DNA of 64,000 nucleotides. Origin: Candidatus Micrarchaeota archaeon. GTDB lineage: Archaea; Micrarchaeota; Micrarchaeia; Micrarchaeales; CABMGC01. The DNA lies in the NCBI GenBank assembly GCA_027319905.1, contig DAHVMJ010000003.1, positions 3,669-67,668 of the forward strand. Direction: 5' to 3'. Shown here piece by piece: positions 919 through 26,068 of the stretch. The notes under the pieces were generated by a model. That model saw nothing but the letters and a program-made list of their open reading frames with translations, had not been told where the DNA came from and searched no databases. Position numbers and translations under genes: made by a program. How positions within the stretch are numbered: the first letter of the stretch is position 1; every line of letters begins with the position of its first letter.

Positions 919-1860
919 CTATGGAGGCGTATAATATGAGGTCCACTGGCTCGTATAGGTGACACTGTTGGGCACTCCGTTGTTGTTGTTTCCAGAGTAG
1001 TCGTTGGCATTTCCGTTCAGCGGCCACCAACCCACAAGATACTGCAGGTTTACCGGAGCACCGCCTATGCCCTCGTCATAGAGAGCACCGACTTCTGGGC
1101 CCGAGAGTGAGGCATTGTAGAGCTGTAGGTTCGCCATGTCCCCTACGAATGGTCCTCCGCCAGCGCCTTCATCATAAACATAACCTATTCCAAAATCTCC
1201 GTTTCCTCCTGTGTTTATGCCTGTTGCTATCGTGTTTGAGTCATAGACCTGATTATTGAAGCTGATGTACGCATAACCCGTTTGGCTGTTGTAGCTTGCT
1301 GCATAAAACACCCACGAACCTGAGTACTGATCCGGCACTCCGACGCAAGTGCCCGCGGGCCACTGAAAGGCACAAGTGCTGCCAACACCAAGCCCACAGT
1401 TATACCATGATGCGGGCGAGTAGAAGCCGCCGCATGCATTTCCTTGAATACAGATGTATCCAGCTATGCCCTGGTCACGCTGACATCCTTGTAAGAGGTA
1501 AAGCCATGCCGTGAATGTAAAGCTGCCCGTTATGAGATTTGTTATGGACGGAGTTATTACATGGGATTGAACTCCGCCCTGCGAACCGCTTGCTGTATTA
1601 GTAGCGAAAACTCCTACATATTGCGGCAACTCTCCGCTGCACACTCCTTCAAGGTTGATGTACGTGGCTGTTTCAGGCCCATTCGGCCTGAAGACCTGGC
1701 ATGCGCCCGGCGGAGCCCGAGGGGCGAAAGTAGAGGCGTTGAAGACGCCGAGCTGGAATAGGGCTCCGAGAACCACGGCGATGATGAGAATAGCCCATCC
1801 GTAGGTCATCAGGTACTCCATCGCGGACTGTGATTTCTTGTTGCGTATCGAGCACACCAC
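919..1860 (-). CDS. Archaeal type IV pilin-like protein with a LamG/concanavalin-like C-terminal domain
   Basis: GTG start. Class III signal peptide: basic leader RNKKS, then QSAMEYLMTYGWAILIIAVVLGALF (Q-x3-E plus a hydrophobic helix). C-terminal WPLNGNANDYSGNNNNG is typical of LamG-type domains. Paralog of 45667-46530. Confidence 0.75.
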   Translation of the reverse strand: MVCSIRNKKSQSAMEYLMTYGWAILIIAVVLGALFQLGVFNASTFAPRAPPGACQVFRPNGPETATYINLEGVCSGELPQYVGVFATNTASGSQGGVQSHVITPSITNLITGSFTFTAWLYLLQGCQRDQGIAGYICIQGNACGGFYSPASWYNCGLGVGSTCAFQWPAGTCVGVPDQYSGSWVFYAASYNSQTGYAYISFNNQVYDSNTIATGINTGGNGDFGIGYVYDEGAGGGPFVGDMANLQLYNASLSGPEVGALYDEGIGGAPVNLQYLVGWWPLNGNANDYSGNNNNGVPNSVTYTSQWTSYYTPP

Positions 1861-1921
1861 AGATCTTGCACCAGCGCATTGCTAACGCTAAACTAGCAAC
1901 AAAGGCATAAAAGCTCTACGC

Positions 1922-2947
1922 CTACCAGATCTGCTCTATGCTGTCCAGTCTGAGCCTCTCCACGTTCTCCAGCTTGGTCTTTAGTCCGAACTTCGCCTTC
2001 ACACCGGTCACCACGCTCATGACGCGTATCTGGTCCCTGAGCTCCGGTATGAGCCTTGCGCCGAAGATCACGTTCGCGTCTGGCGCGAGCCCTTCAGTGA
2101 CGCCCGCTCCTATCCTCGTCGCCTCCTCTATGGTGAGGTCTGCTCCTCCGGATACATGCACCAGTGCGCCCTTTGCTCCTTCGTAGTCGACGCTGAGCAG
2201 CGGATGCGTCCTTGTGGATCGTATGACCTGCTCTGCGCGGTCCGTACCGGTTCCGGTGCCTATGCTTATCACCGCTGTTCCGGTCCCCTTGACCACGGTC
2301 CTGAGGTCGGCGAAGTCCAGGTTGATCAGGCTTGGCAGCATTATCGTGTCTGCTATGCCCTTGACTGCGTTGCCTGTTATGTTGTCCGATAGCTCAAACG
2401 CCTTCTCCATCGGTAGGTTCGGCACGTAGTCGAGGAGTTTCTGGTTCTCTACCACTATCACCGCATCGGCTTCTTTGCTTAGCTGCTGCACTCCCCACTC
2501 CGCCTTGACCTTCCTGCTCCTCTCAAGGTCGAACGGGAACGTGACCGTCGCTATTACAGTGGCTCCCATCTCCCTTGCCACTCTGGCCACAGTGGGCGAG
2601 GCTCCTGTCCCTGTTCCTCCTCCCATTCCGGCCGCGATAAAGACAAGGTTGTAGCCCTCGAGCACCTTTTCCAGGTCGCCCTTGCTGACGTCAGCACATT
2701 TTGCCGCAACTTCCGGGAATCCTCCAGCCCCGAGGCCGTTGGTTATCTCCCTGCCTATCAGCACCCTCTTGTGCGCCTTAACCACGTTGAGGTGCGCAAG
2801 GTCGGTGTTTATGGCTATCGTGTGCGCGCTCTTTATGCCGTTGCTGAAGAGCCTGTTCACAAGGTTGCTTCCCTGTCCTCCAACTCCCACCACCGCAACG
2901 CGCGGCGTGAATGAATCATAGTCGAATTCGTCTGCCATCCCATTCAC
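1922..2947 (-). CDS. ftsZ: Cell division GTPase FtsZ (paralog)
   Basis: 341 aa. Has VGVGGQGSNLVNRL and the tubulin signature GMGGGTGTGASP. Its start directly abuts the stop of the upstream ftsZ paralog. Confidence 0.93.
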   Translation of the reverse strand: MNGMADEFDYDSFTPRVAVVGVGGQGSNLVNRLFSNGIKSAHTIAINTDLAHLNVVKAHKRVLIGREITNGLGAGGFPEVAAKCADVSKGDLEKVLEGYNLVFIAAGMGGGTGTGASPTVARVAREMGATVIATVTFPFDLERSRKVKAEWGVQQLSKEADAVIVVENQKLLDYVPNLPMEKAFELSDNITGNAVKGIADTIMLPSLINLDFADLRTVVKGTGTAVISIGTGTGTDRAEQVIRSTRTHPLLSVDYEGAKGALVHVSGGADLTIEEATRIGAGVTEGLAPDANVIFGARLIPELRDQIRVMSVVTGVKAKFGLKTKLENVERLRLDSIEQIW

Positions 2948-17113: not shown

Positions 17114-17941
17114 TCATCTGTAGTAATCGTCTCCGTCCACTAGCTCTGCTGTCTGGCCCACCACTTTGTACACCTTTCGGTAGCCTATCCTCTTCAGGTT
17201 CTTCACCACCTGGGTGAACGCCTCGCCTCTTCTATGGCTGTCATCGACCACCAGAGCCACCTTGTTGGTGTTGTCCACCAGCGTCTTCAGCTCGAGCGGG
17301 TGAACGAAGAACTCGCGTTCCATCCTGCTTCCGTCCTCGAACGGCGTCTGCCCCTGGTTCGAGAAGCCAATGAGCGCGTAGCCTACGGGGTCCAGCTTCA
17401 TCTGCTTCATCTTCTCTATCACAAGCGGCGTTACCGTAAGTCCGCCGGTCATGTTCGTTATCACTATCGTCTCGCCCTTTGAGAAATACTGGAACGGACT
17501 GTGCATCCTGCAGGTAAACTCGCTTATAGTGTGCGCGTCTGGCGCGGCGAACGACCAGCCTCCGTTCGACGCATGCATGACGAACTGCTCTCCTCCCGCC
17601 TTGAGGCCTATCTCCACCTGCCTTCTCAGTATGCGCAGGCTTTCCGCGCACTCCTCAAGGCTGTTGTTCATGAACGCGCCAGCCCACAGCCTTCTGACCT
17701 TCCACTCTCCGAACATGTGGTCTTTATAGTCGAGGTCCCTGGCCAGTTTCATGAAGTCTTCAAGGTAGCGCTGATGCTGATACACGCTGAGAATCTTGGT
17801 CTTGTACACGTCCGGAACTCTAAAGCCAAATCTCTGGTTGAGTCTCGGGTCCCCTAGAACGTCTGCCTTGTCGTTTTTCTGCTCAGCTATCTTGGTCGCC
17901 GTCCTAGCGTCCTCATTGCTGTATTCCCTTACTATGTTCAT
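17114..17941 (-). CDS. Helical-domain + PRTase-like protein, operon gene 6 of 6 (degenerate PRPP loop)
   Basis: 275 aa. Motifs: FGFRVPDVY, RRLWAGAFMNNSLEECAESLRILRRQ, IVITNMTGGLTVTP, GYALIGFSNQGQTPFEDGS and VALVVDDSHRRGEAFTQV (PRTase-like hhhhDD, but [ST]G-x-[ST] is replaced by RG-E-A). ATGA overlap with gene 5. Confidence 0.75.
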   Translation of the reverse strand: MNIVREYSNEDARTATKIAEQKNDKADVLGDPRLNQRFGFRVPDVYKTKILSVYQHQRYLEDFMKLARDLDYKDHMFGEWKVRRLWAGAFMNNSLEECAESLRILRRQVEIGLKAGGEQFVMHASNGGWSFAAPDAHTISEFTCRMHSPFQYFSKGETIVITNMTGGLTVTPLVIEKMKQMKLDPVGYALIGFSNQGQTPFEDGSRMEREFFVHPLELKTLVDNTNKVALVVDDSHRRGEAFTQVVKNLKRIGYRKVYKVVGQTAELVDGDDYYR

Positions 17942-18825
17942 CTCCAGTACCTGTCTCCGTCTACCAGGTCCGCCGTCTCTCCGACGACCTTGTATACCTT
18001 CTTGTAGCCTATCATCTTCAGGTTTCGCACCACCTGGGTGAACGCCTCGCCCTTCCTGTGGCTGTCGTCAATGACCAGCGCAATCTTGTCCTTGTTCTCC
18101 ACCAGCGTCTTCAGCTCCTTGGGGTGCACGAAGAACTCACGCTCCATCGGGCTGCCATCCTCAAACTGCGTCTGCCCCTGGTTGGAAAATCCAATGAGCG
18201 CGTAGCCTACTGGATCCTTCCCAAGCTCCTTCATCTTTTCCAGCACCAACGGTGTTACCGGAAGACCTCCCGTCATGTTCACTATCGCCATAGTCTGTCC
18301 TTTTTCAAACGACCTGAATGGACCATCGAAGTTGCATGTGAACTCGTTGATTGTGTCGTCGCTTGGTGCAGCGAACGACCATCCGTACCTTGTCGCATGC
18401 TGTAGGAACTTCTCGCCTCCCATTGTCACTCCTCTCTCTATCTGCCTTTTCAGTATATTGAGGCACTCCACGCACTCCTCCAGGCTGTTGTTCATGTACA
18501 CTCCGGCCCACAGCCTTCTCACCTTGTATTCTGTGAACACCCTGTTTTCCGCATCGGCATTCCTCGCAAACTTCATGAAGCTCTTCAGGTACGGCTGCTC
18601 CTGGTATTCGCTTCGTATCGGATAGTAGTAGATGGCTGGCGTCCTGAATCCAAACTTCTGGTTAAGCGCCGGGTCGCCAAGGGGCAGGTCTTTCAGTTCC
18701 AGCGTATCCTCTGCCTTTTCCTGGTCCTCCTGCCTGTTCCTCCTGAGCTCTACCATGCGTGCCAGAGCCTTGGCGTCATTTCCTATGGTGTTTAGTACTC
18801 CCATATCCCTCTCCTCATTCTGCAA
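17938..18825 (-). CDS. Helical-domain + PRTase-like protein, operon gene 5 of 6 (degenerate PRPP loop)
   Basis: 295 aa. Closest paralog of gene 6: FGFRTPAIY, RRLWAGVYMNNSLEECVECLNILKRQ, MAIVNMTGGLPVTP, IALVIDDSHRKGEAFTQV. Confidence 0.75.
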   Translation of the reverse strand: MQNEERDMGVLNTIGNDAKALARMVELRRNRQEDQEKAEDTLELKDLPLGDPALNQKFGFRTPAIYYYPIRSEYQEQPYLKSFMKFARNADAENRVFTEYKVRRLWAGVYMNNSLEECVECLNILKRQIERGVTMGGEKFLQHATRYGWSFAAPSDDTINEFTCNFDGPFRSFEKGQTMAIVNMTGGLPVTPLVLEKMKELGKDPVGYALIGFSNQGQTQFEDGSPMEREFFVHPKELKTLVENKDKIALVIDDSHRKGEAFTQVVRNLKMIGYKKVYKVVGETADLVDGDRYWR

Positions 18826-19738
18826 TCACGTTCTTCTTGCGCGCTACCGCGCCCAGTTCCACCAGGCCCGGCGCATACGCGTTGGGCGATGCCGCCTCCT
18901 CTGCAGTGGTCTCCACTTCTTTCCTAGTCACTTTTACAAGCGGTATGATCGATGTCGCGTCAAGTTTCTGCTGCGCAATCTCGGCCGGTTTCTCAGCACC
19001 TCCTGCTACCGTGGCGCTCGTCTCCTCGTGCTTGGTCTCCGTCACTGTCACCGCCACAGCCGTCTTTCTTTTTCCGTCGAATTCGTCCCTCAGCTCCTTG
19101 ACCAGCTCCCTTGGGCTCTTGGAATAGATTATTGTGGATCCCTTGAGTATCTTCTTCAGGCGGTGGGCCTCGAGCTTTCTTACCTGGTCGGCGAGGCCTC
19201 CGGTTCTTTCAAGCACTCCTATCTTCTTGCCCTCCTTCACCGCAACCGCGAACTCGACCAGTGTGCCTTCCGCGCCTCCTATCACTATCGCCGCATCTGC
19301 TCCGGCAACCAGGGGCACGCTCCTGCCCGTGTCTCCCAAGCCCGTATACGTTATGTGGTCGTAAATCTCGTCCTTTTCAAGACCCCTGCCCAGTTTGGCT
19401 TTTTTGTTCTTCGGTACCATTACCATGACTTCGTCTTCCTCATCCTCACGAATTCCGTCCATGCCCCAGGCTTCGTAGCCGCCATAATACGCGTACGTCA
19501 CGTAGCTGTGAGCTTCCGAGTCGCCAGAAACCCCGTAAACCCTGCCTCCGTGCCTCCTCGCCCCTATCGCGACCTCTTCCGGAAGCCCGCTTCCTGCTCC
19601 GGTGACCACGTCGAACTTCTGTTCGGCGAGGGCTCTCCCGAGCTGGTGGGCCATCGCCTTTGCTCGCTTCGGGTAGTCGTATGTCTTGCCCCCTCCGATT
19701 ACCGCGATAGTCTTTCTCTTGTGCATCTTCTCAACCAT
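18815..19738 (-). CDS. LOG/SLOG-family Rossmann protein (lysine-decarboxylase-like nucleotide N-glycosidase family), operon gene 4 of 6
   Basis: 307 aa. Motifs: TIAVIGGGKT, FDVVTGAGSGLPEEVAIGARRHGGRVYGV and ADAAIVIGGAEGTLVEF (GGxxGTxxE). Has an internal acidic insert and a C-terminal low-complexity extension of about 110 aa. Confidence 0.75.
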   Translation of the reverse strand: MVEKMHKRKTIAVIGGGKTYDYPKRAKAMAHQLGRALAEQKFDVVTGAGSGLPEEVAIGARRHGGRVYGVSGDSEAHSYVTYAYYGGYEAWGMDGIREDEEDEVMVMVPKNKKAKLGRGLEKDEIYDHITYTGLGDTGRSVPLVAGADAAIVIGGAEGTLVEFAVAVKEGKKIGVLERTGGLADQVRKLEAHRLKKILKGSTIIYSKSPRELVKELRDEFDGKRKTAVAVTVTETKHEETSATVAGGAEKPAEIAQQKLDATSIIPLVKVTRKEVETTAEEAASPNAYAPGLVELGAVARKKNVIAE

Positions 19739-21281
19739 TCGTTGTCACTTTTGATTTTTCCTCAGTCCTTTTCCTTGCAGCTGTCTTGAGCGAAAGCCAT
19801 CCGACCAGCTCCTTCGGTTCGTTGGAGTAGAACACCTCGGTCTTCGCGTCCCTGGCCGCGGAGACAAACGCCTTTGTTCTTTTAATATCAACCCCGCTGC
19901 CCAGAAGGACTCCTATCGCCTTCTTCTGAGCCAGCGCGACGACAAGCTCCCTCTGTGTCATGAATTCGTTCCATCCTACCAGAGCGACTACGTCCACGCT
20001 GCTAACCAAATCGGAAGGCCATTGGAACACCCAGCCGTCCTTTTCCCGGTCAAAGCTGCTGTAGGCTATTTTTTTGTAAGCGGTTATCAGTTCCTGCGGT
20101 ATTTGACCTACGCCGAACACAGGGCCATCAGCCAGCACAGCATACACTCCAGCCCCGTTCTTTTTCGCTGTCTCTCCAACGTAGTCTGTAAGGTCCGGTT
20201 CCGGCTTGGTTCTTGAATAAACATCGAAACCGCTCTCTGCAAGCGTCTTCCCAAGTACTGTTGCTGCCATTCTTGCGGCGTGGCCTTGCTTTTTCCCAAA
20301 CAGGTGTGACTTGCCCATGAGCGAGGGGTCACCTCCTCCGATAATGCCAACCTTTTTCTTGTCGTCGCCCTTGTTTTTCGGTGCTGTATCAAGAAACGCA
20401 GGCGCCGGATGGTATGCTGTTTCGTACATGCCTGGAGACCACATCCCGTAACCCTCGTCGTTCATGTCTCTATACGCGTAGAACGCGGTGTGGCCGTTAA
20501 GACTCTTGCCGTCCTTGTCCAGGAGGTTGCCGTCATGCGTCGCTATCTTGAATATCTTAGTGTAGCCTATCTTTTCCAGGCCCGCTCTGATCATGTCGTA
20601 TGTCTTTCCAGTTATCTCGCTGTCGTCCACAACCAAGGCCGTCTTCTCCTTGAACTGTTGCAGCACCCCGAGCTCTGCCGGGTGGATGAAGAGTTCGTCG
20701 CGCATCGACGTCCCGTCCTCGAATCGGGTCTCTCCATTCTTTGACGCGCCGATCAGTACATAGCCGAGAGGCATGCCGCCAAGTTCCTTAAGCAGATCCA
20801 TCACCAGCGGTGTCGTTGGAATAGAACCCACGAGATTTGAGAGCACTATCACTTCCTCGTTTGCGAATCTAAGCAGCGGGCTTTTCGTCTTGCTTTCCAT
20901 GCTCTCTATATCGGATTTTAAGGGACCCATGAAAGCCCACGAACTCTTGTTCGTGACCTCGAAATACTTTCGGCCTCCCATCTGCAGGCCTTTGTCTAAC
21001 TGTTCCCTCAGTATACGCAGCGATTCCGCGCACTCCTCAAAGGTGTTGTGCGCAAACGTGCCGGCCCACAGTCTGCGTATGTCGTGCTCCAGCAATACTT
21101 CTCCCTTTGCGCTCTTTGCCGCCATCTCCTCGGTAAATTTGGATAGGTCATCTTTCCTGGTTATGTATTCTTTCGGTTCGACAAGTCCGAACGCGTTCCT
21201 GAACGGAAAGACCGCAGTCTCCTTCGGGTGCCACGCCCAATTGCCATTCTTGTATCCATCTATCTTTCTCAACTGAAGCAC
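19731..21281 (-). CDS. Fusion protein: helical domain + PRTase-like core + degenerate LOG/SLOG-like domain, operon gene 3 of 6
   Basis: 516 aa, GTG start. N-terminal part: RRLWAGTFAHNTFEECAESLRILREQ, IVLSNLVGSIPTTP and TALVVDDSEITGKTYDMI (canonical PRPP loop). C-terminal part: KVGIIGGGD... and VDVVALVGWNEFMTQRE, where the LOG motifs are only partly retained. Confidence 0.75.
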   Translation of the reverse strand: MLQLRKIDGYKNGNWAWHPKETAVFPFRNAFGLVEPKEYITRKDDLSKFTEEMAAKSAKGEVLLEHDIRRLWAGTFAHNTFEECAESLRILREQLDKGLQMGGRKYFEVTNKSSWAFMGPLKSDIESMESKTKSPLLRFANEEVIVLSNLVGSIPTTPLVMDLLKELGGMPLGYVLIGASKNGETRFEDGTSMRDELFIHPAELGVLQQFKEKTALVVDDSEITGKTYDMIRAGLEKIGYTKIFKIATHDGNLLDKDGKSLNGHTAFYAYRDMNDEGYGMWSPGMYETAYHPAPAFLDTAPKNKGDDKKKVGIIGGGDPSLMGKSHLFGKKQGHAARMAATVLGKTLAESGFDVYSRTKPEPDLTDYVGETAKKNGAGVYAVLADGPVFGVGQIPQELITAYKKIAYSSFDREKDGWVFQWPSDLVSSVDVVALVGWNEFMTQRELVVALAQKKAIGVLLGSGVDIKRTKAFVSAARDAKTEVFYSNEPKELVGWLSLKTAARKRTEEKSKVTTNG

Positions 21282-22153
21282 CTCTTCCCGTTACTGTCAA
21301 GGAAAACGCTGTCAACTGTAGCGACCTTGTATATCTTCTCAAATCCGATCTTCTTCAGTCCCTTTCTCATCCCAGCATAGGTCGTGCCGCCGCATTCAGT
21401 ATCATCTACCACAAGGGCGGTCTTCTTCTTGTTCCTGGCGAGCGTCTCAAGTTCCCTGGGTGGAACGAAGAACTCGCCTATCATGAGATCTCCATCCGCG
21501 AACCTCGTCTCCCCATGTTTTGAGTACCCTGCCAATACGTATGCGAATGGCTCTCTCCCAAGCTTCTGCATCAGCCCGATCAGAGGCGGCACACACTCGA
21601 ATCCGCCCACCATGTTCGCAACCACTACCGTTTCCTTTCTTTCGAAGTTTAACAGCGGGCTGCTCTGCTCGTCCTCTAGGTCTAACGCGAAGCCTTGAGG
21701 CATGCATTTCCAGCAGTCGTTTGTAAGACGCACCAGAGCGTCTCCTCCCTCGTACCTCTTCAGGCGCATGTCAACCACCTGCCTCAGTACGCTTAGAGAC
21801 TCGGCGCAGGCCACAAGGCTGTTGTTCCTGAACGACCCCGCCCAGAGACCGCGGATTCTGTCTTCATCGGCAGCAAGCCCGTCATTGATCGAAGCCTTAG
21901 CATACGATACCATGTCCGCGAGAGCCTCTCTTTTAAAACTGTAGGCGATTGGCTTCGGGAAGCCCAGTTCTGCAGTCAGCCTGAAGCCGAGGCCCTTCTT
22001 CTCCATGGCCTCTGAGCTCCCGCGAGCGTTTGGCAGTCTGGCCGTGTCCGCATCCGCGCCCCTCGTCGCTCGAGAAACCCCGCGCAATCTAGTTGTAGTA
22101 TCCAAATACACACCTCCCGTTTCCGTCAAGTACCGTGCTGTCCCCTGTAGCAA
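21269..22153 (-). CDS. Helical-domain + PRTase-like protein, operon gene 2 of 6
   Basis: 294 aa as called. Motifs: IRGLWAGSFRNNSLVACAESLSVLRQ, VVVANMVGGFECVP and TALVVDDTECGGTTYAGM. The first 49 codons read through a duplicated gene-1 3' segment in another frame, so the ATG at 22004-22006 (MEKKGLGFRL...) is the more likely start. Confidence 0.7.
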   Translation of the reverse strand: MLQGTARYLTETGGVYLDTTTRLRGVSRATRGADADTARLPNARGSSEAMEKKGLGFRLTAELGFPKPIAYSFKREALADMVSYAKASINDGLAADEDRIRGLWAGSFRNNSLVACAESLSVLRQVVDMRLKRYEGGDALVRLTNDCWKCMPQGFALDLEDEQSSPLLNFERKETVVVANMVGGFECVPPLIGLMQKLGREPFAYVLAGYSKHGETRFADGDLMIGEFFVPPRELETLARNKKKTALVVDDTECGGTTYAGMRKGLKKIGFEKIYKVATVDSVFLDSNGKRCFS

Positions 22154-23106
22154 AATATACAGCTCCCGTTTCCGTCAAGTACCATGCTGTCCCTCGTCGC
22201 AATCTTGTAAATGTTCTTGAACCCGATCTTGCGCAGTCCCTCTCTCATTCCACTGTAAGACCTGCCGCTGCATTCCGTGTCATCTACCACAATCACGGTT
22301 TTGTCCCTGTTCCTAACAAGCATCTCCAGCTCCCTCGCAGGCACGAAGAACTCATTAACCATTCTTTCTCCATCAGCAAATTCAGTTTCCCCATTGACCG
22401 AATAGCCAGCCAATGCGTACCCTGCCGGTTCCCTGTCAAGTTTCGTAAGCAGCTCGATCAGCTGGGCTGTGGTGTACAGACCTCCGGTCATGTTTGGCAC
22501 CACAATTGTCTCGTGCTTCTGGAAGCGCATCAGCGGGTTCTTGTTATTCGAGGTGCTCTCCAGGGCGGCCTCAACGAACCATCTCTGCATGCCTGCGCGC
22601 AAGCAGCTCGACTTGAGTGCTGCCACAGAGCAGTCGCTGAGTTCTCCAAGCCTGATCTCAAGATCGTTTTTCAGCAGTTGGAGGGCTTCTGTGCACTTTG
22701 GCTGCTGCCGGTCTGGATAGTCTTCTGGATCTACATCCTGATGCTGGGCGCGGTTAAGGAGCTCTCGAGCAGGGTGCTTGACAAGCTGGGGTTCGAGGGC
22801 CACGATAACATAAAGGGCCTGCTTGAGTTGGGCGCGGTGCTGCTCGCGTACGCGGTGCTCTCGATAGTGATACTGCTCTTCTTCCTGTTTATAGGCCCGA
22901 GCATCGGGATCTGAGACCTGGTTACCTTCAGATCGCCAAGCTTCAGCCGTATCTTTCTTCTGATTCAGACCGCACGCGAGGCGAGCGAAGCGAGCACTGT
23001 GTAGCCGTAGCTGGCTAGTGTCTGCAGCCTCTAGCCAGCCAAACCCAAAAACAATAAACATCAGCAACAGCAGCATCAACATCATCTGCATTTGCAGCTT
23101 GAGCAT
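22126..23106 (-). CDS. Divergent PRTase-like protein, operon gene 1 of 6 (start uncertain)
   Basis: 326 aa as called. The C-terminal 150 aa is clearly paralogous: TIVVPNMTGGLYTT, GYALAGYSVNGETEFADG, TVIVVDDTECSGRSYSGM. The RRLWAG motif is absent, leaving only PKCTEALQLLKNDLEIRL. The N-terminus is hydrophobic and low-complexity (MMLMLLLLMFIVFGFGW). The C-terminus is frameshifted by a 49-bp tandem duplication. Confidence 0.6.
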   Translation of the reverse strand: MLKLQMQMMLMLLLLMFIVFGFGWLEAADTSQLRLHSARFARLACGLNQKKDTAEAWRSEGNQVSDPDARAYKQEEEQYHYREHRVREQHRAQLKQALYVIVALEPQLVKHPARELLNRAQHQDVDPEDYPDRQQPKCTEALQLLKNDLEIRLGELSDCSVAALKSSCLRAGMQRWFVEAALESTSNNKNPLMRFQKHETIVVPNMTGGLYTTAQLIELLTKLDREPAGYALAGYSVNGETEFADGERMVNEFFVPARELEMLVRNRDKTVIVVDDTECSGRSYSGMREGLRKIGFKNIYKIATRDSMVLDGNGSCIFCYRGQHGT

Positions 23107-23291
23107 CAGCTTGAGCGACTACGAAGCCTCGTAGCCGAGCAGCAGCGACCTAAGCTAAATACTAGCCGGCGAATGTAACGCTCGGGCACGGGTCGGCCGC
23201 TCGTCGGCTCACGGCCTTCAGAATGCGCTCGCTATCTCAAACCAATCTTTAAATACGCGGAAAGCCATAACGTATTATCAAGGGTGGGAAG

Positions 23292-23329
23292 AAAAAGGAG
23301 GCGCTCATCGGAAGCGCCGCCTCCTTTTG
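23292..23329 (-). terminator. Hairpin plus T-run, candidate terminator after the alpha/beta hydrolase gene
   Basis: aaaaggagg (23293-23301) pairs with cctcctttt (23320-23328), with extra inner GC pairs. It starts 5 nt past the stop at 23334. On the minus strand the 3' arm ends in TTTTT. Confidence 0.4.
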
Positions 23330-23333
23330 AAAT

Positions 23334-23975
23334 TTAAGCCGCACCTTCCAGTTCCTTTAAAACAATTGAAATGACCTTCTCCTCGTTTGCATCTCTATTG
23401 CCTATGCCGGAAACCGGCTTGAAAGAGTGGTCCGCATTATCTATTGTGTATAGCTTGCATTTCGGCAGACGCTCCTTCAGAATGCTTACGTCGCAGTAAG
23501 GATCCTCGCTGCCCTTTATTATCACAAACGAGGGCTTCATATCTTTGACGCCGTTCAGGTCGAAGACGCTCGAAGGCTTTCCTTCTTCGTGCAGCGAATA
23601 ACCAAGCGCTACAACTTTTGGTATGCTGTATCTGCCTCTGGCTGCCTCTAGGGAGGATATGTAGCCCCCGAAGGACTTGCCTACCAGAGCCGTCTTCTTG
23701 CTTCCGAGGAAGCCGATGGCGGCCTCCATCTCCCCCACGCTTCGCTCGGCATCCATGTCTTCTGGTTTACCGGCAAAAGAAAAGTTGAACCTCAGGACAT
23801 CGTAATCATTGCTAAGCCTGGCGAAGAGTTTCTCCACTATGCTCGTGTGCATATCGTTGTACATGCCGTGGGAAAGAACTACCCCAAGTCCGTGTCCTCT
23901 TTTGGAGTATTCCACCTCCACTTTGCGACCGTCCACTTCAATAGTTTCATGACCATTTTCAGCCAATTCGCTCAC
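23334..23975 (-). CDS. Alpha/beta-fold hydrolase
   Basis: 213 aa. Nucleophile elbow LVGKSFGG (GxSxG), preceded by VVLSHGMYNDM, with a C-terminal DNADHSF (catalytic His region). Confidence 0.75.
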   Translation of the reverse strand: MSELAENGHETIEVDGRKVEVEYSKRGHGLGVVLSHGMYNDMHTSIVEKLFARLSNDYDVLRFNFSFAGKPEDMDAERSVGEMEAAIGFLGSKKTALVGKSFGGYISSLEAARGRYSIPKVVALGYSLHEEGKPSSVFDLNGVKDMKPSFVIIKGSEDPYCDVSILKERLPKCKLYTIDNADHSFKPVSGIGNRDANEEKVISIVLKELEGAA

Positions 23976-25996: not shown

Positions 25997-26068
25997 AGCC
26001 CCAGGAGGGGATTGAACCCTCGACTTCGAGTTTACGAAACTCGCACTCTACCACTGAGTTACTGGGGC
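25997..26068 (-). tRNA. tRNA-Thr (anticodon CGU)
   Basis: The complement reads GCCCCAG-TA-ACTC-AGTGGTA-GAGT-G-CGAGT-TTCGTAA-ACTCG-AAGTC-GAGGG-TTCAATC-CCCTC-CTGGGGC-T. This is a full cloverleaf with a 7-bp acceptor stem. CCA is not encoded and there is no intron. Confidence 0.9.

Follow-up and report, generated by a model that had tools for sequence, protein, structure and literature searches.

The minus strand of the analysed window, a stretch of 64,000 nucleotides (nt) from a Candidatus Micrarchaeota archaeon, carries between positions 17114 and 23106 six tightly packed genes, here called g1 to g6, whose neighbouring open reading frames (ORFs) abut or overlap by 4-28 nt. Five of them encode paralogs that resemble phosphoribosyltransferases (PRTases; PRT for the fold) and g4 encodes a protein of the SLOG superfamily. 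The PRT-like proteins g5 and g6 carry, in the loop expected to hold the ribose 5-phosphate of phosphoribosyl pyrophosphate (PRPP), the sequences DDSHRKGEA and DDSHRRGEA. Judged from sequence, this loop is a real, selected and unique variant and does not constitute evidence for a loss of function. Our leading but tentative reading is that g5 and g6 possess a functional ligand site of altered charge and specificity, whose binding is a prediction.

The span 17114-18825, on which a preliminary description of the locus was centred, is exactly g6 plus g5. Translation of the exact coordinates bore out the loop sequences which that description gave for g1, g2, g3, g5 and g6. It was also right in naming g5 and g6 the two most similar paralogs: amino-acid identity between them is 65%, DNA identity over the 3' 300 nt is 79%, and their common node has 100% bootstrap support.

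The PRT-like family to which these proteins belong is archaeal and very rare. HMMER, run exhaustively against 1.84 billion representative proteins (E≤1e-3), returned 52 relatives, and loop residues were counted in 46 aligned relatives, copies of the present locus being excluded. Word-indexed homology searches with g5, with a five-paralog profile and with a 12-sequence profile recovered only proteins of the same population, and no relatives were found in the scanned metagenome contigs and viral contigs. The residue before the loop Gly is Thr or Ser in 36/46 relatives, Arg in a single one and Lys in none. Two positions after the Gly (+2), Thr or Ser is found in 43/46 (93%) and Ala once (P0030, VTGRA), while Glu occupies the intervening position (+1) in 6/46. 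The replacement of Thr/Ser by Arg or Lys before the Gly and by Ala at +2, pointed out in the preliminary description, is therefore real, and the two together occur in 0/46 relatives, which makes g5 and g6 unique among 51 family sequences. Since no other relative combines them, the g5/g6 loop is a genuine outlier, beyond chance variation in the family.

The change extends further than these two positions. The second residue after the acidic pair (DD+2) is a Glu that g1-g3 share with 6/7 of the nearest outside relatives, and a His in g5 and g6; the third (DD+3) is Cys or Ile in g1-g3 and Arg in g5 and g6. By these replacements the whole loop switches from net acidic to net basic. The three post-DD residues, TEC in g1 and g2, SEI in g3 and SHR in g5 and g6, follow the duplication tree, as expected for a divergence of specificity.

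In a neighbour-joining tree the operon paralogs group together (79% bootstrap) in the order ((g1,g2),(g3,(g5,g6))), with g1+g2 supported at 98.5% and the placement of g3 unsettled at 46%. No rate acceleration is apparent in g5 and g6 from these sequences: the path from the common ancestor to the tip measures 0.322 for g1, 0.329 for g2, 0.324 for g3, 0.317 for g5 and 0.323 for g6, and mean identity to seven outgroup proteins is 31-33% for all five paralogs. The ratio of non-synonymous to synonymous divergence between g5 and g6 (dN/dS, Nei-Gojobori) is 0.27/1.24 = 0.22 overall and 0.15/0.89 = 0.17 in the PRT-like domain, values that are approximate because dS is near saturation. Neither g5 nor g6 departs from any of the 12 family-invariant columns of a 12-sequence subfamily alignment. 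Both proteins retain the equivalent of the pyrophosphate (PPi) loop, NMTGG, whose Asn and first Gly are invariant in the five paralogs, as well as the flexible-loop motif S-x-x-G-x-T-x-F-x-D-G, which is better conserved than any other in the family. The PRPP-type loop with the helix that follows it, DDSHR[KR]GEAFTQVV, is the same in g5 and g6 except for the K/R position, despite 35% divergence of the proteins. These comparisons argue for a maintained functional site under purifying selection and not for a decaying one. That g5 and g6 are decaying pseudogenes was rejected, their ORFs being intact and their dN/dS 0.17-0.22. Degeneration within the family also appears to take another form: the second Asp is lost in 8/46 relatives (N, G, H, F or R instead) and a few lack the Gly, and g5 and g6 keep both.

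How such a loop should be read depends on what is tolerated in characterised enzymes. In type I PRTases the 5'-phosphate is held mainly by backbone amides at a helix N-terminus, and the positions that follow the DD pair line the ribose and acceptor pocket. Six PRTase genes of E. coli K-12 were fetched and translated as controls. PurF has Arg before the Gly (VLLVDDSIVRGTT, loop DDSIVRGTT), and PyrE has Ala both before the Gly and at +2 (VMLVDDVITAGTA, loop DDVITAGTA). The loops of Hpt, Gpt and Apt read VLIVEDIIDSGNT, FIVIDDLVDTGGT and VLVVDDLLATGGT, respectively; Hpt and Gpt have as third residue after DD an Asp, which contacts the purine. Both substitutions singled out in g5 and g6 are thus found in fully active enzymes, in agreement with phosphate binding through backbone amides. 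In view of PurF and PyrE, the preliminary description was too strict in giving DD-x3-[ST]-G-x-[ST] as the normal form of the loop. Its label 'canonical' for the loops of g1-g3 is not quite accurate either. The PROSITE signature PS00103, which we take to be a hydrophobic strand and two acidic residues followed by x-x-x-[STAR]-[GAC]-x-[STAR], was matched by 5/6 of the E. coli controls, by 1/46 relatives and by none of the five paralogs, although the DD pair, the loop length and the Gly are present in all five. The Arg and Ala of g6 fit that pattern, the mismatches being the His and Arg at the two preceding positions.

The converse case is provided by APRT2 of T. brucei, which has a canonical loop (VLIVDDFIGTGST) yet no detectable PRTase activity (PMC8836349). 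The PRPP motif is hence a poor predictor of activity in either direction. The premise that these substitutions betray a pseudoenzyme is weak, because each of them occurs in active PurF or PyrE and the inactive APRT2 has the canonical motif. Nor is the g5/g6 loop a recognised pseudoenzyme signature, since the known non-catalytic proteins of the PRT fold keep canonical PRPP loops. On the question, raised in the preliminary description, whether the R/K-G-E-A loop is a known functional variant, the answer is divided: each substitution is known singly from the active PurF and PyrE, but the combination was found in no known enzyme.

The C-terminal half of the paralogs is predicted to be a type I PRT-like core, at scores below the curated limit of the Pfam family PF00156: g1 reaches 16.4 bits, g2 13.4 and g3 14.0, for a gathering threshold of 26.3, which the more distant relatives P0016 (33.3 bits) and P0025 (29.6 bits) pass. 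Against the PDB, a five-paralog profile found PurF and a Pyrococcus purine PRT at E values of only 0.035-0.08, in alignments that span just the strand-DD-loop-helix segment. HMMER and hhalign agree on the register, in which the DD...G of the paralogs falls on the DD/ED...G of PurF, Hpt and PyrE; against single E. coli sequences the expected register was recovered at low probability (Hpt 30%, PyrE 2%). AlphaFold2 models of g5 (mean pLDDT, the model confidence score, 82.7) and g3 (pLDDT 74.6) share one order of strands and helices: a helical N-terminal domain of ~130 residues, then strand-Gly-rich loop-helix, strand-long hairpin-helix and strand-DD-loop-helix. Both predicted structures show a five-stranded parallel alpha/beta core with PRT topology, and in the g5 model the PRPP-type loop lies between the strand 208-213 and the helix 220-232. 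The best Foldseek matches of both models are almost all type I PRTases (hypoxanthine-guanine PRT or HGPRT, purine PRT, PurF, PyrR, PurR, PRPP synthetase), with probabilities of 0.9-1.0, E values of 1e-3 to 1e-2 and TM-scores, a measure of fold similarity, of 0.3-0.45 on the target. For g5 the best PDB matches are purine PRTs, HGPRT and PyrR (probability 0.9-1.0, E ~1e-2), and for g3 PurF, PRT-related proteins and HGPRT; a viral fold library gave generic PRTase matches only. The N-terminal helical domain bears a strongly conserved motif R-R-L-W-A-G-x-F-x-N at 17678-17695 (g6) and 18502-18519 (g5), with counterparts in g2 and g3. A relaxed form of it, [RK]-x-x-W-…-F-[DN], can be made out in a few distant family members, and no Pfam family covers the motif.

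The explanation that we favour combines these elements as follows. The genes g5 and g6 would be the most recent duplicates to arise as this rare archaeal PRT-like family expanded in tandem in the present lineage, and the paralogs would be co-transcribed with LOG-like SLOG proteins. The ribose-5-phosphate site of characterised PRTases would have been re-charged in g5 and g6, not destroyed. Its beta-strand, both Asp residues, the length of the loop, its Gly and the N-terminus of the following helix are kept, and four side chains are altered (Glu to His, a variable residue to Arg, Ser/Thr to Lys/Arg and Thr/Ser to Ala). Both proteins would still bind a phosphorylated ribose-type ligand, with a specificity unlike that of g1-g3. 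Since the third post-DD residue is an Arg where Hpt and Gpt have the purine-contacting Asp, their target may be a different, probably more anionic, phosphorylated ligand or acceptor. The preliminary description had proposed either a partition into catalytic and pseudoenzyme paralogs or a switch to another phosphorylated ligand. The switch of ligand or specificity remains the best reading, and the argument for pseudoenzymes is weakened by the overly strict motif rule on which it was built.

Several observations weigh against this explanation. The Ala at +2 is a real loss of a phosphate-contacting hydroxyl, at a position where Thr or Ser is 93% conserved; beside the Gly, hydroxyl residues are absent from g5 and g6, whereas PurF and PyrE each retain at least one; and the Glu beside the putative phosphate site could disfavour binding. 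A PF00156 scan of g5 and g6 gave no match at all. The structural models were built from alignments of 5-6 sequences only, and the Foldseek E values are weak. Finally, purifying selection is equally expected for a functional subunit without catalysis, and the evolutionary tests do not separate a different ligand from such a subunit.

The first alternative is one that we regard as unlikely. In it, g5 and g6 would have lost PRPP binding or catalysis and would play a regulatory or scaffolding part in hetero-oligomers with g1-g3 or with g4. The unique pairing of a basic residue before the Gly with Ala at +2, the bare Gly and the missing Pfam match would then mark the loss, and the overlapping stop and start codons that couple the six genes are as expected for the subunits of a complex. 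Type I PRTases are oligomeric, and inactive paralogs are documented, for instance APRT2 of T. brucei and yeast (PMC8836349). A mirror pattern points the same way, g3 combining a canonical-type loop with a degenerate SLOG domain and the canonical SLOG protein g4 preceding g5 and g6. Against it stand the active enzymes that bear each substitution, the low predictive value of the motif, the retention in g5 and g6 of the DD pair, PPi loop and flexible loop in a family where 8/46 relatives have lost the second Asp, and the unaccelerated rates of both proteins.

The SLOG partners are the other constituent of the cluster, and the context they provide is more interesting than the loop. The g4 protein is a member of Pfam LDcluster4 (PF18306; 1.5e-25, 90 bits, threshold 26.3) and lies below the cut-offs of TIGR00725 (1.2e-15, 57.3 bits, cut-off 106.9) and TIGR00730 (19.3 bits, cut-off 96). 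Its motifs IGGG, TGAGSGLP and GGAEGTLVE are intact, the last being the counterpart of the LOG motif PGGxGTxxE. The C-terminal SLOG domain of g3 (~19731-20363) is homologous to g4 (BLASTP E 6e-6) but scores only 14.2 bits against LDcluster4, below the threshold of 26.3, and its Gly-rich motifs are replaced (TGAGSGLP by SRTKPEPDL, GGAEGTLVE by GWNEFMTQRE). Owing to this loss of motifs in g3, the most canonical PRT loop is fused to a degenerate SLOG domain, and the intact SLOG protein g4 precedes the PRT-like proteins with the remodelled loop. The best PDB matches of the SLOG profile are T. maritima 1RCU, the Moco carrier protein and LOG enzymes. In light of these solved relatives, the last of which are phosphoribohydrolases, the SLOG partner could be a nucleotide N-glycosidase or a carrier of a phosphorylated ligand.

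The same locus was found on three other contigs (L003, L004, L005) with 99.8-99.98% identity, and a protein identical to g6 is present on three contigs besides that of the window. L003 and L005, one an ENA contig and the other a Logan contig, possibly derived from the same reads, match the window at 99.97-99.98% identity as far as 22702 and diverge from it inside g1, at 22702/22703; the observation concerns L003 1-2413 and L005 1-156. In these contigs g1 has the normal N-terminus of the family (…EIRELWAGSFRNNSL…). The 5' part of the g1 ORF in the window is unrelated to the N-terminal domain of the family, hence the join at 22702/22703 reflects a rearranged strain or, alternatively, an assembly chimera. 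Read on the plus strand, 22703-22914 resembles the C-terminus of a membrane protein. Upstream of g1, L003 and L005 carry a third SLOG gene (221 aa; LDcluster4 6e-25 and 88 bits in L003, above threshold) and beyond it a divergently transcribed sixth PRT-like gene (236 aa) from another clade of the family, whose loop, LLLLDWCKNSGAT, has lost the second Asp. The two genes occupy L003 581-1291 (minus) and 1442-2107 (plus). The fuller order of the cluster is SLOG–g1–g2–g3(PRT and degenerate SLOG)–g4(SLOG)–g5–g6, so that two sister PRT paralogs come after every intact SLOG gene. The PRT-like family is expanded about six-fold in one operon and interleaved with LOG-like SLOG domains.

A more elaborate interpretation of the cluster, speculative and in our judgement improbable, is that of a previously undescribed archaeal multi-paralog SLOG-PRTase system. 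LOG-like and PRT-like proteins with different ribose-phosphate loops would handle different phosphorylated ligands, g5 and g6 working with g4 and g3 with its own degenerate SLOG domain, in a pathway that modifies nucleotides or bases or in a conflict system that depletes PRPP or nucleotides.

The whole set could instead be a nucleotide-centred conflict or signalling module following the logic of the defence system ShosTA, in which no paralog would be a classical salvage enzyme. The PRT-like proteins would serve as effectors or sensors undergoing diversification, one outcome of which would be the g5/g6 loop. By analogy with ShosTA this is conceivable, but we consider it rather improbable. In its favour, the family is extremely rare, has expanded in this lineage specifically and shows hypervariable loops. 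Moreover, an LDcluster4 SLOG gene (190 aa, 88.3 bits, above threshold) lies directly upstream of the PRT-like gene P0008 (286 aa) in the unrelated contig pair L006/L007 (L006 7406-8861). This cassette has an AbiEii-type toxin-antitoxin locus on either side and, close by, a DDE transposase and a DNA methylase, a setting that resembles a mobile element or defence island. The PRTase of ShosT binds PRPP, and its toxicity requires the DD pair (PMC11961720); in one branch of the YpsA family, SLOG proteins are coupled to PRTase genes (PMC6459960). Weak PADLOC matches were also obtained, of g1 to ShosT (0.002) and of g4 to ThsA-STALD (2e-7), PsyrA (4e-5) and ShosA (3.5e-3), but they span 28-60 residues only. 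Most family members elsewhere are single-copy (with one tandem pair), have no SLOG gene beside them and stand in small archaeal genomes, including those of Micrarchaeota, among housekeeping genes: eIF5A, S24e and S27, or S19e, or topoisomerase VI. The window operon itself adjoins genes for valyl-tRNA synthetase, HIT, Suf and DEAD-helicase proteins and no defence genes, and the scanned viral contigs contained no relatives.

That the loop differences are neutral, g5 and g6 being dosage or redundant copies of the g1-g3 activity, is very unlikely: the loop is indeed the least conserved of the three motifs of the family (10 residue types before the Gly, 14 at +1) and the general reliance on backbone amides would tolerate change, but it has stayed fixed in both g5 and g6 while 35% of other positions diverged, four of its seven residues were altered together with a reversal of charge, and +2 is otherwise 93% Thr or Ser.

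Positions of the features of the cluster in the window
Feature	Position	Strand	Source or remark
g1, PRT-like paralog	22126-23106	minus	ORF list
g1, portion common to other assemblies	22126-22702	minus	contig comparison
g1, 5' part of the ORF	22703-23106	minus	window only; starts MLKLQMQMMLMLLLL…
g1 loop DDTECSGRS	22258-22284	minus	translation
g2, PRT-like paralog	21269-22153	minus	ORF list
g2 loop DDTECGGTT	21380-21406	minus	translation
g3, 516-aa fusion of N-terminal PRT-like domain and C-terminal divergent SLOG domain	19731-21281	minus	
g3 loop DDSEITGKT, HGPRT-like	20601-20627	minus	translation
g4, 307-aa SLOG/LOG-like protein	18815-19738	minus	Pfam LDcluster4
g5, PRT-like paralog	17938-18825	minus	295-aa ORF from TTG; called gene 288 aa, ATG at 18804
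g5 PRPP-type loop DDSHRKGEA	18043-18069	minus	translation
g5 PPi-loop equivalent NMTGGL	18262-18279	minus	g6 copy 17438-17455
g5 flexible-loop equivalent FSNQGQTQFEDGS	18151-18189	minus	g6 copy 17327-17365
g6, 275-aa PRT-like paralog	17114-17941	minus	N-terminal helical domain and C-terminal predicted type I PRT-like core
g6 PRPP-type loop DDSHRRGEA	17219-17245	minus	translation; register against Hpt, PyrE and PurF

The ATG of g6 overlaps the stop codon of g5 (ATGA). A 49-nt tandem duplication (86% identity; 22098-22146 and 22147-22195) lies across the end of g1 and the extended 5' portion of the g2 ORF; its length is not divisible by three, so that the final seven codons of g1 (RGQHGT-stop) correspond to the second repeat copy in a different frame. 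The protein identical to g2 is named 'phosphoribosyltransferase [Nitrososphaerota archaeon]' at NCBI, where proteins identical to those of the cluster are labelled as coming from a 'Nitrososphaerota archaeon' metagenome-assembled genome. A strong GC-rich hairpin flanked by runs of A and T (AAAAAGGAGGCGC…GCGCCGCCTCCTTTT) at 23288-23330, just downstream of an alpha/beta-hydrolase gene (23334-23975, minus), is likely a terminator that separates this gene from the PRT cluster in the arrangement of the window. It was the only element found in a promoter and terminator scan, whose models are of bacterial type for an archaeal host. A tRNA-Thr (CGT) gene lies ~3 kb further upstream, at 25997-26068.

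Elsewhere in the family, the contigs of Micrarchaeota type (L002 7962-8636, L008 6001-6690, L010 and L011) have a member between a VIT1-family gene and the genes eIF5A–S24e–S27, with an uncharacterised 285-aa gene in place of the VIT1-family gene in L002. The loops of these positional orthologs are non-canonical, DDSESSDGIS (with one extra residue) and DDTENIGVS. The contig L019, from a small archaeal genome and with many fragmented-looking genes, carries tandem paralogs of the family, P0023 and P0015 (7288-7941 and 8001-8786), with the loops DDSSVTKNT, which lacks the Gly, and DGCIETGST, which lacks the second Asp. Given these tandem loops, the pairing of a canonical with a non-canonical copy may be something that recurs.

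If the re-charged loop does mark a change of ligand, g5 and g6 would broaden the chemistry known for the PRT fold, and SEITGKT and SHR[KR]GEA would be natural loop variants with which the role of the PRPP loop beyond backbone contacts can be addressed. If it is ordinary variation, residues of the PRPP motif should not by themselves be used to call PRT pseudoenzymes. For the cluster as a whole, five or six PRT-like and three LOG-like SLOG domains, co-transcribed, make an unusually rich SLOG-PRTase association. Such associations are already known from comparative genomics and from ShosTA, whose PRTase substrate remains unknown, and an archaeal version with several specificities could help to identify their substrates.

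Among known systems, the type I PRTases such as Hpt/HGPRT and PurF are the closest to the paralogs. The predicted core has the same order of strands and helices, the acidic pair that ends a hydrophobic strand, the seven-residue loop with its Gly at a helix N-terminus, the Gly-rich PPi loop after the first strand and the long hairpin or 'flexible loop'. The TGKT of g3 is similar to HGPRT, and the Arg before the Gly of g6 is that of PurF. Unlike these enzymes, the paralogs stay below the Pfam threshold or, for g5 and g6, give no match, none of the five fits the PROSITE-type signature, and all carry an extra helical N-terminal domain of ~130 residues. A position that is hydrophobic in canonical enzymes is taken by Glu in the subfamily and by His in g5 and g6. 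PRTase paralogs that kept the fold with catalysis lost or changed include APRT2 of T. brucei and yeast and the B. subtilis proteins PurR and PyrR, both of which are among the fold matches. PurR offers a parallel in its extra N-terminal domain, joined to a PRT domain that binds PRPP as an effector. Its full-length alignment to the paralog model is poor (TM-score 0.24), and a PurR-like winged helix was rejected for the N-terminal domain on account of this poor global match. In contrast to g5 and g6, APRT2, PurR and PyrR keep the canonical PRPP motif.

As for SLOG-PRTase associations, ShosTA likewise encodes a PRTase-like protein beside a Rossmann protein of the SLOG superfamily. ShosT has an N-terminal pyrophosphatase domain, and the acceptor of its PRTase is unknown (PMC11961720), whereas the N-terminal domain of the paralogs is helical. 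ShosA is DprA-like, has a SAM domain and binds DNA, whereas g4 is like LDcluster4, TIGR00725 and LOG. ShosTA combines one PRTase with one SLOG protein, against five or six PRT paralogs and three SLOG domains here, in an archaeal host. The only PADLOC match to ShosT, that of g1, covers residues 267-302, the PRPP loop region, and the match of g4 to ShosA 28 residues. Membership in ShosTA was rejected because the architecture differs and the matches are partial. The pairing of SLOG and PRTase genes is similar in the YpsA-PRTase gene pairs (PMC6459960). On the SLOG side, g4, the upstream SLOG protein of L003 and that of L006 all pass PF18306 and keep a GGxxGTxxE-type motif, as do SLOG cluster 4 and LOG proteins; g4 differs from LOG in its scores below TIGR00725 and TIGR00730, in an insertion of ~50 residues and in a low-complexity tail of 80 residues. 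The Pfam entry for SLOG cluster 4 notes fusions to PRTase domains, an architecture like that of g3.

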